NCBI RefSeq assembly: GCF_052425735.1
Contig: NC_135761.1
Span: 42,160,001-42,224,000, forward strand
DNA: 64,000 bases
Source: Oculina patagonica
Taxonomy: Eukaryota
Direction: 5' to 3'
Below are positions 51,650-64,000 of this stretch, one piece after another; positions within the stretch are counted from its first letter, which is position 1; every line of letters begins with the position of its first letter. The position numbers and the translations under genes were made by a program. The notes beneath the pieces were generated by a model. That model saw nothing but the letters and a program-made list of their open reading frames with translations, made no database searches and was not told where the DNA came from.

Positions 51650-54600
51650 ATGTCACTCAATGCTCGAGGGATTCGAGACCTCCAGAAACGCAAATCAATT
51701 TTTACGTGGATAGAAAAACAGAAAAGTGACATAACGTTTCTTCAAGAAACCTATAGTACACCAGAAATCCTTAGTGATTGGAAATTCCAATGGCGTGGAG
51801 AAATGATCTATAGTCACGGTTCGAATCATAGCAGTGGAGTGCTCGTCCTCATTAACGAACAGCTACAGTTCGAATTAAAAAATGCCGTAATAGACGATAA
51901 CGGCCGTTACATTTTATTAGAGATGACCATCCAAGACTCTCCATTTCTTTTGTTAAATTTATATGCGCCTACAAAACTCAACGAACAAGTAGCCTTTTTC
52001 GAAGAAATCCTTTCTATTATTCAAACCACCAGCTTTGACACAGAATGTAGAATTATCATTGGTGGAGATTTCAATGTTCATCTAGATGCTGCTCTTGATA
52101 ACTCTGGAGGAAAAATTGAAACGAAATCTACTGTTAAAAATATTCATGATATAATGCTTGAGTATAACCTAATTGATATATGGTGAGTTCATAATCCAGA
52201 TAAAAAGCAGTTTACTTGGAGGCAAAAAACGCCGATTATTCAGCGACGCATTGACTTTTGGCTCATAAGTGATGAACTACAAGACGACATTCAAAAAGCA
52301 GACATCGTCCCAGCTATCAGAACCGACCATGCAGCAATCAGCTTGTCCCTCAATAGCCTAAAAGACCAACCATTTGGACCATCTTATTGGAAATTTAATT
52401 CAAGCCTTCTTGATGACGATACTTACATACAGCTTATTAACTCTGAATATCCAAATTGGATTATGGAATTTTCTGAAGTTAATGACCCAAGAGTTTTATG
52501 GGATTTAATTAAATACAGGATCAGACAAATTACTCTCCAATATAGCAAAACTATCGCCAAAAATCGAAAAGCACGGTTACAGAGAGCGGAAGAAACCCTA
52601 AAACAATGCGAGGAAATTTACAACAACAATCCATCAGAAGATAATATTATAAAGTTGGACGAAGCAAGGAGTGTGTATGAAGCATTGTATGATTATATTA
52701 TTCAAGGTAAAATAATCAGATCAAGAGTGAACTGGTATGAACAAGGGAAAAAAATTCAAAATACTTTTTAAATCTTGAAACCAACAAAACCGGAAAAACA
52801 TCGATTCGTCGGCTATTTAATTCAGATGGAAAAATAATTTTAAATTCAAAATTCATTATGAAAGAACTTGAGGATTATTACACATCTCTCTACAGAAACC
52901 AGGATTCAAGCGATGGTGACCGATTTATTCCAGATTTCACCAACAGCGTTCACATTCCTAAACTAAGCGATGATCAGAAAAATCTTTGTGAAGGAATTTT
53001 GTCAAACACTGAGTGTTTTAACGCACTATCTAAATTCCCAAATGGAAAAAAACCTGGAAATGACGGCTTAACACCAGAATTTTACAAAAAGTTCTGGAAT
53101 CTTCTTGGCCAACTTATGACCGATTCCTTGAATTTTTCTTACCTACACGGCGAATTGTCTAATTCACAAAAACAAGCAATAATAAGACTTATTGAGAAGA
53201 AAGGAAAGGATAGACGTTATATAAAAAACTGGCGGCCTATCTCTTTATTAAATGTTGACACTAAAATAGCTTCGAAAGCATTAGCATTGCGATTAGAAAA
53301 AGTATTGCCTTTTATTATAAACGGGGACCAATATGCTTATGTCAAAGGCAGAACTATTTTCGATGCGGTCCGGCCAATCGAAGACATCATGGAATACACG
53401 AGAATTAACCAGATACCTGGGTTAATGGTGGCAATTGACTTTGAAAAAGCATTTGATTCTATAAGCTGGAATTTTTTGCTAAAAGCATTAAAATCGTTCA
53501 ATCTTGGTGAATCTTTTGTTAAATGGATCTCTGTTTTTTATTCTAATATATCCAGTTGTGTCACAAACAATGGTTTTTCGACGCCATTGTTCAGTGTTGA
53601 AAGAGGTGTTAGACAAGGAGACCCGTTGTCACCGTATCTGTTCATCATAGTGTTGGAACTACTATTAATTAAAATAAGAAGTGATCCTCGTATTAAAGGA
53701 ATTAAAATTGGTAATATAGAGGTAAAACTTGCAGCCTTTGCTGATGACTTGACAACATTTGTACACAACAAAGCCTCCATAGAACATTTGTTCAGTACAC
53801 TGGGACTATTCGAAAAATGTTCAGGCTTGAAATTAAACAAAGACAAAACGGAGGCCTACTGGCTCGGGAGTAGCCATAATTGTAAACAAAACTTGGGTAT
53901 AGAAACTGTTAATGAACCAATGAAGATTCTGGGAATTTATTTTACGTATAATTCTCGCCTAAAACATGAACTTAATTTTGAAGCAATACTTAAATCTTTA
54001 AAGAAAACCTTGAATGGTTGGCAATGGCGAAATCTAACTGTGTTCGGCAAGATTCAAATCATTAAAACATTCGCAATGCCAAAACTCATGTACCGTGCTT
54101 CCGTATTAAATCTAGACAAAGATTTTTTGAAAAAGGTTAATTCTGTGATGTTTAATTTTTTATGGAACGGAAAAGATAAAATCAAACGCTTAGCTCTGAT
54201 CAGCGATTATAAAGATGGCGGTCTGAAAATGCCTCACGTGGAGTCTGCAATCAAAACTCAGAGAATCATTTGCCTAAAGAAGTATACTGAGAACTATCAT
54301 AGCCCTTGGAAAGGATTCTCAAAGATCACGGCGAGAAATTCCTTCTTCATTGTAATTATAATGGTGCTGATCTACCTAAACACCTTCCTAAATTTTATCC
54401 CGAGTGTTTTGAGACCTGGGCGACAGTCAATACTAAAGAAATGTCCTCCCGAGACGTCATCATGGATCAAATACTATGGAACAATCAATTTCTGCGTATT
54501 GGGGGCAAACCTCAATTTTGCAAAAAATCATATATGGCTGGAATTGTAAAGATAAAAGATATCCTTCTCCCGAACGGCAAATTAAAAACTTGGAATTTCT

Positions 54601-55400
54601 TTTGAGAAAAAGGGCTGAATTTTAACAATTATTTCTTAATCCTTGGTCTGTCAAAAGCACTTCCAGACGCATGGAGAGTCTTGATAAACTCGAAAAATCC
54701 ACAACCCCCTGATGCGCAAGAGCAGAGCACCACCACAATTTTGGATTTAACTCAGTTTGTGCTCAATTGTAATAATGAAGAAATTAAGCTCAGTGAACTC
54801 ACGAGCAAAAGACTGTACTGGATTCTGATAGGGAACATACACGTCCATCCTACTGCAAGATTAAAATACAACTCTTTATTTGATGATCAAAATCTTGACT
54901 GGAATCAAATTTATTTAACGCCACAAAAAGTGACTTTAGACATTAAAACAAGAATGTTTCAATTTAAAATTCTTAATCGTATAATATATACTAACAAATT
55001 GTTGAATAAAATGAGGCTAATAGATACCTCGTTATGTACGTTTTGTGGAGAGTACGAAGAATCTCTCAAGCATTTGTTTTTACACTGCAAATTTACCATA
55101 GATTTCTGGACGCATACTACTAACTGGTTAAATAAATTAAATATTACCATTTCTAGGCTAAATGACAGCGAAATTCTGCTAGGTATTACAAAAGAAAGTC
55201 CTCATTGGACTCTTCTCAATCATATTCTCATTGCTGGTAAGCAAGTAATCCACGCTAATCGGCTCAGGAAAACAAAACCACTCCTACCTCAGTTAATAGC
55301 TAAACTTAAATTTATTGAACACAATGAATATTGTATCGCTAAGAAAAGGGACAGGCTTAAATTTCACCTACAGAAATGGGAAATACTTAAGTTTTCTTGA
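51650..55400 (+). pseudogene. Tx1 no. 2 ORF2 (APE + RT + zf-RVT) with a few lesions
   Basis: APE motifs; PGNDG, NWRPISLLN, DFEKAFD, GVRQGDPLSP, FADD, CTFC..HLFLHC. Stops at about 52184 and 54603, frameshifts at about 52750 and 54310. Confidence 0.95.
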
Positions 55401-60359: not shown

Positions 60360-60472
60360 ACACACATGTATGATGAGGGTTTTGGCGCAAATGGCAACAA
60401 ATAGCTCGGCTCGCTAGCTCGCCTCGCTCTTTGTTGCTATTTGCGACCAAAACCCTCATCATACATGTGTGT
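60360..60472. repeat. 113-bp hairpin
   Basis: acacacatgtatgatgagggttttgg.cgcaaat.gcaacaaa / tttgttgctatttgcgaccaaaaccctcatcatacatgtgtgt around a gctcg-rich loop. Confidence 0.9.
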
Positions 60473-61549
60473 AAGCGCGAGCGGCACGCAAAAAATCGCG
60501 AGCTGCATTGGTGCGCCAGAATTATTTTTCAATTGAACAAATGCTCTTATTGAGTAAACGAAGATGGGAAGAGGGAGAACTGGAGAAATTAACTTGAATG
60601 TAAAGAAAAACTTGAAAAGATCTCGTGGAAAAGCGTTTACAACCTACAAAAAAACTAAAGAAAATGAAAAACAAATAACAATCTTTTTAACAGACGAGCT
60701 GATTGAAAAATTAAAAAAACTAGACAGCAGTGTTGTCGCAAACGTTTTGACAAGCTAAACAAAACTTGCACGCTCCGGTGAGTGCATAAATTATCGAGTA
60801 ACACAGGAAGTCATTGTTTACCCTGTGCCAATTGCGTGGGAAACCCCCTTGACGTAATCTAATTCTTTTTTTTTTCATTTTGAATATTTTTAGCCGGAAA
60901 ACAACTCAAACTCTTTGTATGTGTGTTTTGAGAGCTATGATTTATTCAACAACAATATTTAATTTGACTAACATGTAAATATACCGTGAAATATTGAGCT
61001 AAGAACTTTCTAGCACATAAAAGAACAATATAAGATCACGGTAATTTTATTCACCAGGCGTCATTACTATTTTTAGTTAATAGGTTATTTCCCGATGTAA
61101 TGACGTCTTTTGTGACCAATCACCGTTAAAATTATAACTATATATTATTCACATAAGCTTTTTTGTATTACACAAACAATTATGGCCGATGTATGGAGAC
61201 GTTTATCAAACCTTTTTAATCGAAAAAAGAAGCAAAGACGCAGCTTACGGACATGAATCATTTGGAAACGACAAACTAGGATCTGATTATAATATTTTAC
61301 ATCAGCTATTCGTGCCTTCGCTTCGCGAAACCTAAGCAATTACGGACAACAATCAGATGCTTGGTCGTGAAGTTTGGTCACAAGGTTAAGTATATCGGAT
61401 GCTTGTAGACGTTTTTTCAAACATTTTTCGATCAAAATTAAGAAGATTTAACTCAGTTTATCGACATGAATCATTTGTAGATGTCAAACGATAGCCTAAT
61501 ACAACTAAAGCGTTTGCCAAACTTGACCAAAATTTGCCAAGTTACAAGC

Positions 61550-61880
61550 CAAAACACGTCATCACTTTGGAATGCAATCGGTTACGCCGTAACCTGAATT
61601 GACAAAATTATTTTAGTCACAGGCCTCAAAACGTCATCACTTTGAAATTTCAAATGGGTTACGCTGTAACCCGAATTGACAAAATCAGCCAAGTTCTCAA
61701 CCTTAAATATTCCGCCGTTGTCAAGGAACAATTTACCTTAGATACCGTGGCCATAGATGTCTGCCGTTGTCAAGGAACAATTTACCTTGGATACCGTGGC
61801 CATGAATGTCCGCCGTTGTCAACGAACAATTTACCTTGGATACCGCGGCCATAGATGTCCGCCGTTGTCAACGAACATTT
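61550..61880. repeat. Tandem repeat block next to the viral genes (two ~75-bp units, then 3.5 x 49-bp units)
   Basis: The 49-bp unit ccgccgttgtcaa(g/c)gaacaatttacctt.gataccg.ggccat.gatgt starts at 61712, 61761, 61810 and 61859. cgtcatcactttg.aat...ggttacgc.gtaacc.gaattgacaaaat occurs twice in 61555-61685. Confidence 0.9.
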
Positions 61881-62281
61881 AACTTAGCAACTGAATAAAA
61901 TTATTTTACTTAACACACTTGTAATGTTTATTGATTGCTTATTATATCATTAAAAAGCTGTTGATTTGCATAAGTCTGACGCTGTGGGACATTCACCCAC
62001 ACACAAAAAAAATTTGCATGCATTGTTCAGACAAGCCCTTGACTGTGGGGATTAAATCAAGTGTTTATTTTTTTTCTGATTTCGACTCGGCTGAAAGTCA
62101 CTTTAAGCACGCTTTAACCTTTTATTTTGCCTCGTTCAGGCAAACAACAACCTCTCTTGTGATGTCTCGAACATTTTTTTGCAACTCGAACGACAATGCT
62201 TCCATCACAAAGTAAACGACAAGATGAGCGCAGACAATCATTCTTTTATAAAATGAAAAAATGTTTTATTGGACTGAAATT

Positions 62282-62944
62282 TTATTTCGAAATGTCGGTA
62301 GCGCTTTCGAGAAGTTTTTTTTCCAATCTTTTGCGTTCTTCTCTCTTGATTTCTTCCCGAATTTTTCCGATGTCTGGCTGGAGTGAATTTCTTTGTTTTT
62401 GTGCAAAGTTTGAGCGTAAAGTATCTTTAAGTTGTCGATATTTCTTCATTTCTCGTGTGATCAGTTGAAACTCTTTGTCAGAAACAAGATTATCATTCAG
62501 AGCTTGTGAGACAGAGCTGTTTATCGAGTCATGTTTTGCAACAGCCAGAGCGAGGATTCTTGAGTGCTTATTAACTTTACGTTCAAGCTTTTTGTTGATA
62601 ACTGACAGGCCAGTGGAAGCTGCGCCAGATATACCTGCTACTGCTGCAACAGGAACGCCGATAACAATTCCAACACCAGTAAGTGAAGTCGCAACAGCTC
62701 CAGAAGACAGAGCTGCCGTCACGGCGCCAAGACAGACCACGGAATAGTGAATAACTTTCCGGACTTTTTTATATTTTTTTAACACAAGCCTGTAATGCTC
62801 AGCTTCAGCGGATATTTCTTTTTCAATTTTACTTATTTCAGTCAGCCGAAAATTCTCGGCATTTGTTGGGAGGCTTGGATAAAGTTGTGTTTCTTCGCGA
62901 TCACCATAAGCAGGGGCACTCGGGAGAACATTAGCAGATGACAT
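62282..62944 (-). CDS. Polinton/adintovirus-type membrane protein (so-called gasderminX-like), 220 aa
   Basis: LYPSL..FRLTEISKIEKEI..E...Y....KKYKK, a Gly/Ala-rich double hydrophobic segment (SLTGVGIVIGVPVAAVAG), then KVNKH..I..LA..K...I...VSQAL.D..VSDKEF.LI..E..KY..LK. ATG at 62944. Confidence 0.75.
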   Translation of the reverse strand: MSSANVLPSAPAYGDREETQLYPSLPTNAENFRLTEISKIEKEISAEAEHYRLVLKKYKKVRKVIHYSVVCLGAVTAALSSGAVATSLTGVGIVIGVPVAAVAGISGAASTGLSVINKKLERKVNKHSRILALAVAKHDSINSSVSQALNDNLVSDKEFQLITREMKKYRQLKDTLRSNFAQKQRNSLQPDIGKIREEIKREERKRLEKKLLESATDISK

Positions 62945-62966: not shown

Positions 62967-63632
62967 TTAATTTAATTCTAATTCAAAATGCAGCGGAGCT
63001 CCAACAAAGTCAAACTTACTGCCAGTTTTGTCTTTGACGGTCAATGTGACACTGTTCACACTCTGAACAGCGTTGGTTCGACGTGAATTATTGATAAAAT
63101 TTTGAGGGTAATGAACCAAATCATAAGGTTTCCCGGTTATTGGTACACAAGCGAGAATGTCACTTGGCTTTCCATTATACAAGTTATTTTCTTTGGAAAG
63201 TAAATCGCAGTGAATGTAATAAAAGTCTGGCTTAGTAAAATCTTCAATTCTTGCGTTAGCAGCATCAACAATTGTGTTCTTAAAAAGTTTAGAAAGATTT
63301 TTATCAAAAGAAAAGCTTTCAATATTTTTTGTTTTTGTTATTGAAAAGCCTCTTTTTAAATCATCCCTTTTTACTGTTAGCTTTTGTTGATCTTTGAACT
63401 TATTAGCCAGGTAAGTTGTAATTTCATCAAAATTGTAGTTGCCTGGAAAAAAATCAGCAACATTGTTGCTCACATTGTTTTGTTTAATGCTAATGGAGCC
63501 AATTTCTTCCAGATTACGCCAGCTGTTTTGTAACGAGCATGACAGCAGGCTGATAAACCTTGGTTTTTCAATTGGCTGGTCAAAGTAAACAGATTTCCTG
63601 TTGGAACTCGCGTCGATTGTGAGCACAACCAT
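62967..63632 (-). CDS. Minor capsid (penton-like, single jelly-roll) protein of a Polinton/adintovirus
   Basis: Beta-rich. N-terminal YFDQPI...ISLLSCSL.NSW.N, PGNY, YYIHCDLL...LYNGKPSDILA, and C-terminal VNSVTLTVKDKTGSKFDFVGAPLHFELEL. Confidence 0.75.
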   Translation of the reverse strand: MVVLTIDASSNRKSVYFDQPIEKPRFISLLSCSLQNSWRNLEEIGSISIKQNNVSNNVADFFPGNYNFDEITTYLANKFKDQQKLTVKRDDLKRGFSITKTKNIESFSFDKNLSKLFKNTIVDAANARIEDFTKPDFYYIHCDLLSKENNLYNGKPSDILACVPITGKPYDLVHYPQNFINNSRRTNAVQSVNSVTLTVKDKTGSKFDFVGAPLHFELELN

Positions 63633-63672: not shown

Positions 63673-64000
63673 ATGGCTCCGCCTATTCCGAGAGCTGATG
63701 ACATTTCTCAATCAACTTTTCTTGATTCCAAAGAAAGAGATTTTATGAAGTGGATGAAAACCCCAGAAGCAACTAAAATTTCTGAAGCGGCAAAAGACAA
63801 TGCGTGGAAACCTTTTCTTGCAAAATATCCAAACGCTGACCGAACAAAATTTGTTGCACAGGTTGAGTTTGCGTACAACCACACAGCAACGGCAGACATT
63901 TATTACAAGGCAGAGCAAGGCCATTTGATAAATGTTTTTGGCTCTGACAGCAAATATTGGAGCCCAGAGATGAAAAAAGCACTGGGGGTGAATCAAATTT
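63673..64000 (+). CDS. Uncharacterised viral-element ORF, 3'-partial (absent from the ORF track)
   Basis: tataaaATGgct start. Open for 109 codons to the window end (MAPPIPRADD..FLAKYPNADRTKF..YWSPEMKKALG). Divergent from the penton-like gene. Confidence 0.7.
   Translation, partial: MAPPIPRADDISQSTFLDSKERDFMKWMKTPEATKISEAAKDNAWKPFLAKYPNADRTKFVAQVEFAYNHTATADIYYKAEQGHLINVFGSDSKYWSPEMKKALGVNQI

Follow-up and report, generated by a model that had tools for sequence, protein, structure and literature searches.

The window analysed here is a stretch of 64,000 nucleotides from the coral Oculina patagonica (contig NC_135761.1, positions 42,160,001 to 42,224,000), and it contains a 220-aa open reading frame (ORF) with two short motifs, PSAP and LYPSL, in its N-terminal tail (Table 1). 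Both motifs had been claimed for this tail in an initial annotation of the sequence and were found there, although the tail stretch holding them is 25 residues long and not 22. The motifs are followed by a helix from residue 29, a basic patch and a Gly/Ala/Val-rich uncharged run of 54 residues, which is also the median length in the family. Both motifs fit the consensus P(T/S)AP and YPXnL as worded in the accessible part of PMC4880917. A six-frame reading of the whole window (127,996 codons) contains one LYPxL, four P[ST]AP and 24 YPxL. In a hand-picked alignment of 56 sequences, Tyr22 and Pro23 are within the six most conserved columns, and Tyr58 of the basic patch is nearly invariant.

Table 1. 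Features of the locus, with positions counted from the first nucleotide of the window
Feature	Position	Strand	Remarks
Terminal repeat at the left end of the element (approximate)	60360..60540		with internal palindrome 60360-60472
220-aa ORF, Oculina patagonica	62282..62944	-	predicted to have a disordered tail with the late domains, a SLATT-like hairpin of helices whose tip is hydrophobic, and two helices at the C-terminus
Uncharged Gly/Ala/Val-rich run, aa 64-117	62594..62755	-	predicted two-helix membrane hairpin, turn at aa 89-92
Basic patch, aa 56-63	62756..62779	-	adjoins the N-terminal side of the hydrophobic run
LYPSL, aa 21-25	62870..62884	-	predicted ALIX V-domain ligand; read from DNA
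PSAP, aa 8-11	62912..62923	-	predicted TSG101-UEV ligand; read from DNA
221-aa ORF, probable minor capsid (penton) protein	62967..63632	-	directly upstream of the 220-aa ORF; by size and position
Conserved 565-aa element ORF, start portion	63673..64000	+	extends beyond the window

The gene is located at the left end of an element of the Polinton/adintovirus type of about 16 kb. A search of the 529-Mb O. patagonica genome gave 439 candidates, of which the 150 that were scored are 92-100% identical to the gene, so that it is present at least 150 times. Mapping of ten other copies showed an ATPase, an integrase and a polymerase-sized ORF of 1019-1408 aa in each of them, and a capsid-sized ORF of 417 aa in nine. 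Among the element ORFs, Pfam profiles matched Pox_A32 at E 8e-11 and rve at E 2e-6, the latter with a score just under the curated cut-off, and the polymerase-sized ORF carries a YTDTDS motif but matched no PolB profile or PDB entry. The 417-aa and ~221-aa ORFs have the size and place of capsid proteins and gave no meaningful profile or PDB match; by size and position, they are putative capsid genes. Terminal inverted repeats of 290-292 bp, 99.7-100% identical, flank all five of the other copies tested, and at the left end of the window copy homology to other copies begins at 60360 or 60510. In every own-genome copy that was mapped, the gene of the 220-aa ORF adjoins the probable penton gene. 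The window copy is broken, with a shortened capsid-sized ORF, a deleted ATPase and no integrase or polymerase ORF within 27 kb past the window, and cannot itself make virions; its tail gene is intact. Among element ORFs of at least 120 aa, none was recognised as an adenain protease, and profile searches of the element ORFs recognised no fusogen.

The conservation of the motifs was compared with that of their variable flanks, as had been proposed with the initial annotation, and both were found to be conserved far above chance. Close coral homologues retain the two motifs while the spacer between them varies. For a wider comparison, a profile search of 50%-identity clusters gave 1,634 clusters at E<=0.001, and from the best 150 of the 1,634 we kept 74 representatives, leaving out 44 without a core start, 25 with short cores, six with odd tail lengths and one duplicate. 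YPxL is present in 53 of the 74 tails (mean 1.45 and maximum 6 in 1000 shuffles), P[ST]AP in 37 (mean 0.5, maximum 3 in 1000 shuffles) and the two together in 28 (shuffle mean 0.01); the relaxed form [LIV]YPx[LIV] reaches 58 of 74 (shuffle mean 0.45). P[ST]AP is thus absent from half of the representatives. Neither motif occurs in the 13,018 core residues of the same 74 homologues, and among the 37 representatives with less than 36% core identity, 29 carry YPxL and 17 carry P[ST]AP. PPxY is not enriched (4/74 tails, shuffle mean 2.1), and for this reason no NEDD4 motif is claimed. Because the profile of this search included the tail and so favoured motif-bearing matches, a second search, at about 30% identity, was made with only the core of a distant member as the query, leaving the tail unscored. 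From the best 120 of 127 matches, 81 were kept after removal of 26 with duplicate tails, ten without a core start and three with short tails, and in this set, many members of which are mutually close relatives, YPxL was found in 78/81, P[ST]AP in 56/81 and both in 55/81.

The host range of the family is suggested by weak Atlas labels (Mollusca, Nucleocytoviricota and Preplasmiviricota), and a scan of viral_contigs returned no relative. A Polinton-like virus known from a metagenome, unrelated and with a very different set of genes, encodes a 45%-identical homologue in which PSAP and YPEL are present. The fragment of this virus (L092:1-8505) encodes pPolB, a probable protease, an ATPase-like ORF, two penton-like ORFs and a Gly-rich repeat protein. 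In the clade P0305-P0390, ATAP stands in place of PTAP; the accessible part of PMC4880917 reports that ASAP binds TSG101 in an iridovirus.

The arrangement of the motifs differs among homologues. PSAP-first and YPx[LIV]-first orders were counted 22 and 8 times in the 74-representative set and 33 and 22 times in the core-only set, the gap between the motifs is 0-17 residues, and the S/T position of P[ST]AP is Ser in 32 and Thr in 7 cases (74-representative set). In a quick tree built on the core alone (81 rows, thinned from 130), the strongly supported branches force at least seven and at least six changes of the two motif arrangements. Since the spacing varies, the order flips repeatedly and Ser and Thr alternate, the motifs behave, as judged from these alignments, like selected and portable linear motifs. 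In O. patagonica the tail gene also exists as a second, diverged allele, in which both motifs are kept with longer spacers. Copies with this second allele (L063, L064, L065 and L070) are otherwise similar elements, and in L070 a window-type start is fused to the core of the other allele, a joint that suggests recombination inside the tail.

These patterns bear on two other explanations. First, the motifs could be structural or inherited residues without a host partner. Most members have Tyr22 and Pro23 only 6-20 residues ahead of the first helix, from where the two could pack against the core; this is very improbable, however, as the tail is modelled without structure, the distance to the core ranges from 6 to 35 residues, and the order flips repeatedly. 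Second, YPxL could serve as a clathrin-adaptor sorting signal of the YxxPhi type, and PSAP as a generic PxxP/SH3 ligand, in which case ESCRT would not be the target. Signals of the YxxPhi kind are common in the tails of membrane proteins and YPSL fits this pattern, but Tyr stands directly before Pro in 62/74 tails (shuffle mean 14), L, I or V precedes the Tyr in 58 of these 62, and P-[ST]-A-P is strict. Such a residue pattern is unneeded for AP-2 or SH3 binding and matches the ligands of ALIX and TSG101, so that the adaptor explanation is improbable. We consider it very probable that ESCRT is the target of the motifs.

The host has genes for both expected partners. Four exon matches to the UEV domain were found in its genome, one of which aligns to PDB TSG101 at E 7e-23; this exon, covering only part of the pocket, keeps YNIP and M95 of PDB TSG101, which we take to be binding-pocket residues of the UEV. 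ALIX V-domain exons are also present, together on one contig, and a related coral ALIX, 93% identical to that of the host over one exon, keeps EGTKFYN, which presumably holds the binding-pocket residue F676. Using the V domain of this related ALIX (aa 358-702) as a stand-in, we modelled a complex with aa 1-34 of the tail, in a run in which the alignments of the two proteins were unused. The model scored 0.59 against 0.29 for the best control, with at least 60% agreement in contacts and a partner pLDDT of 46-47. In calibration the pass mark was reached by 51/78 solved complexes and 2/108 mismatches, and on eukaryotes by 39/65 solved complexes and 2/126 unrelated pairs, a calibration that extends neither to peptides nor to host-pathogen pairs; the band of scores up to 0.60 holds only 5/78 solved complexes and all four passing mismatches. 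In addition, similar ALIX complexes are already solved, and the pass may therefore reflect memory. The predicted contact lends weak support to an ALIX-tail interaction. The reading of the motifs as TSG101 and ALIX late domains, which the initial annotation had put forward, is well supported by sequence, while its support from structure prediction is weak and concerns ALIX.

An AlphaFold2 model built from 56 diverse sequences (pLDDT 89, pTM 0.71) shows residues 1-28 as unstructured and the helices 29-89 and 92-150 as the two arms of a long hairpin, the tip of which is formed by the hydrophobic run, followed by helices 156-188 and 192-219; both ends of the hairpin are on one side. It supersedes a first model made from close homologues only (pLDDT 60), for which the fold search was empty. 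The hairpin of residues 64-117 is likely to insert into a membrane, and if its tip crosses the membrane twice, the tail and the C-terminus would both be cytosolic. The basic patch would face the cytosol as well. The top fold matches are three uncharacterised invertebrate iridovirus proteins, S6DF61, A0A5B8RH66 and A0A068QKD3, at E 2.4e-8 to 1.8e-6 with 20-24% identity over about the full length, a likeness of fold. Giant-virus proteins come next at E>0.001, several of them named SLATT (SMODS and SLOG-associating 2TM). Thirty of the 56 members match the NCBIfam model SLATT_1 (NF033634) at E<=0.1, with a best E of 2e-6, and Pfam SLATT_1 matches 9/56. The 220-aa protein itself scores 18.9 bits against NF033634, below the curated cut-off of 41, and E 6e-4 against a CBASS 2TM effector model, also below the curated cut-off. 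Against PDB, no fold match reached E<=0.001, the best Z of 11.6 being one that generic helical bundles also attain, and the best profile match had E 0.095. The protein thus has a SLATT-like architecture, with two adjacent predicted TM helices and a helical region after them, and its core weakly resembles the SLATT two-TM predicted pore-formers, including those of Polinton-like and giant viruses, with all of its own scores under the curated cut-offs.

GasderminX was considered as an identity for the protein and was dropped in favour of the SLATT-like core. No gasdermin appeared among the seven PDB profile matches (E<=10), the 25 of 73 Pfam families listed or the listed fold matches, and a pX-like C-terminus was not evident by eye. 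GasderminX is, as the coral gene would be, a membrane-active accessory gene of similar elements and is paired with 'cupiennin' in the accessible text of Starrett 2021 (PMC8502044), but it is probably a different gene. In Fig. S2 of the same paper, 'SLATT' is labelled on the Hydra and Stylophora adintovirus maps, and this SLATT gene, matched by label and not by sequence, is probably the gene of the 220-aa ORF.

The best reading of the coral protein, treated as an analogy, is that of a functional analogue of bluetongue virus NS3. PMC7409164, in its accessible part, describes NS3 as a viroporin with two TM helices and a coiled coil, which also bears polybasic motifs and PSAP/PPRY. The two proteins share a length of ~220-230 aa, N-terminal late domains including PSAP, a coiled segment and a basic patch before two TM helices, and NS3 of this non-enveloped virus plays a pore-like part and recruits ESCRT (PMC7409164), as the coral protein would. 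In contrast, bluetongue virus is a dsRNA virus, its second motif is PPRY (for NEDD4) in place of YPxL, and NS3 has a 21-aa glycosylated luminal loop where the coral protein would have a tight turn; in Foldseek, orbivirus NS3 gave E 0.19 and 0.25 with TM of ~0.2-0.3. Retroviral Gag has the same pair of short, position-independent motifs, with PTAP and LYPXnL in HIV-1 p6 and YPxL in EIAV and RSV, as stated in the accessible part of PMC4880917. The carrier differs: Gag forms the lattice of an enveloped virus, and the coral protein, an accessory protein, is a predicted integral membrane protein of a DNA virus of the capsid type.

On this basis, we propose that a Polinton/adintovirus accessory protein recruits ESCRT for the non-lytic, quasi-enveloped exit of capsids, and we give this whole reading, which draws on sequence, models and analogy, a probability of roughly 0.6. 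The protein would insert into a host membrane as a two-helix hairpin and show both motifs of its disordered tail in the cytosol, where P[ST]AP would recruit TSG101 (ESCRT-I) and (L/I)YPxL would recruit ALIX in a redundant manner; this topology and the actual binding of ESCRT are what we infer. Of the two motifs, YPxL would be the constant one, and P[ST]AP would be an addition that is often gained or lost. ESCRT would then pinch the membrane off around progeny capsids, as with bluetongue NS3, at the plasma membrane, the multivesicular body or the inner nuclear membrane, and the protein may contact the capsid, possibly via its C-terminal helices.

The recruitment of ESCRT need not serve the exit of virions. 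ESCRT might be bound to handle a SLATT-type pore or viroporin itself, either for sorting into multivesicular bodies and extracellular vesicles or for the timing of lysis via membrane repair, with capsids leaving otherwise. All the motif evidence fits this alternative equally, the SLATT-like core suits it, and host proteins such as syntenin and ARRDC1 load vesicles via these motifs. Furthermore, the accessible parts of PMC12220804 and 10.64898/2026.10.13.758929 propose that SLATT genes in Polinton-like viruses encode pores, which would serve in endosomal escape, in abortive infection or in lytic egress. Against it, the gene keeps its place beside the probable penton gene, viral membrane proteins that bear two late domains mostly use them to release particles in the accessible accounts (PMC4880917, PMC7409164), and a part in entry would fit poorly with motifs that have to face the cytosol. 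We judge this alternative to be rather unlikely. More tentatively, and at somewhat less than even odds, the proposal of ESCRT-mediated capsid exit may apply to a whole, widely distributed SLATT-like family, which animal Polintons, Polinton-like viruses and invertebrate iridoviruses would have in common and which would then be a dedicated ESCRT-recruiting egress factor for non-lytic, fusogen-free exit in host membrane.

The motif feature is real and strongly conserved, it is apparently unreported, and the mechanism itself is known elsewhere; for example, a vertebrate iridovirus buds via TSG101, ALIX and NEDD4 (PMC4880917, accessible part). The words 'ESCRT' and 'late domain' are absent from the main texts, as far as accessible, of PMC8502044, PMC11131425, 10.1101/2023.08.22.554363, PMC12220804, 10.1101/2025.10.09.676808 and 10.64898/2026.10.13.758929, and 'ESCRT' is absent from the accessible text of 10.1101/2025.02.07.637071. 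An ESCRT motif on SLATT proteins is not mentioned in the accessible parts of PMC8502044, PMC12220804, 10.1101/2025.10.09.676808 and 10.64898/2026.10.13.758929, and in the last three of these pore formation by SLATT is a prediction. In the literature searched, from which subscription papers were largely absent, no link between Polintons and late domains was found, the matches being general reviews with one ESCRT mention each, and the accessible late-domain literature that we located does not contain 'polinton'. The initial annotation had also spoken of a virus group assumed to be non-enveloped. This does not hold for all Polintons, as those of nematodes bear a fusogen and are proposed to be enveloped, and the accessible text of the same study leaves envelopment of Polintons in other hosts as an open question (10.1101/2023.08.22.554363).

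The motifs bear on the route by which animal Polintons leave cells. If the proposal of ESCRT-mediated capsid exit is true, a fusogen-free exit in host membrane would allow the elements to pass from cell to cell, into the germ line and from one species to another. As each coral genome contains hundreds of them, exit without lysis would also matter for the spread of viruses in corals and for horizontal transfer. The SLATT-like genes of these viruses have so far only been guessed to be pores in the accessible parts of PMC12220804 and 10.64898/2026.10.13.758929, and the motifs give a lead on function for a family of more than 1,600 protein clusters, including the uncharacterised iridovirus proteins. 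Two mutable motifs of 4-5 residues make the question directly testable by peptide binding and vesicle release.

Several other features of the elements were observed. The probable penton gene (window 62967-63632 and L002-L030) occurs as divergent alleles swapped between copies with 96-98% identity in their flanks, in the manner of a receptor-binding cassette that can be exchanged. The terminal repeats of ~290 bp (window 60360-60472; L034/L035 and four other pairs) include an imperfect palindrome of ~146 bp that could form a long hairpin, and between the left end and the gene (window 61711-61885) there is a tandem repeat with a unit of ~49 bp, the copy number of which varies among elements. The polymerase-sized ORF L035:4898-9124 (-) has an endonuclease VII domain inside, and in three copies a P[ST]AP motif closes this 1408-aa ORF, at aa 1405, possibly by chance. 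Three ORFs with hydrophobic segments are without a family match, namely L034:8127-9497 (-) of 456 aa, L034:6439-8130 (+) of 563 aa and L035:3330-3755 (+) of 141 aa, the last of which is probably 'cupiennin'. Fragments of a LINE-type reverse transcriptase ORF, identified by eye and unrelated to the finding, lie at window 52858-55400 (+). Two runs recorded as RNA have contigs matching parts of the gene, and such contigs can neither rank genes nor prove transcription; in one of these runs, the coral metatranscriptome X18 (window 62359-62866, L035), the depth is very great across nearly all element genes, which is a hint of massive activity of related elements.
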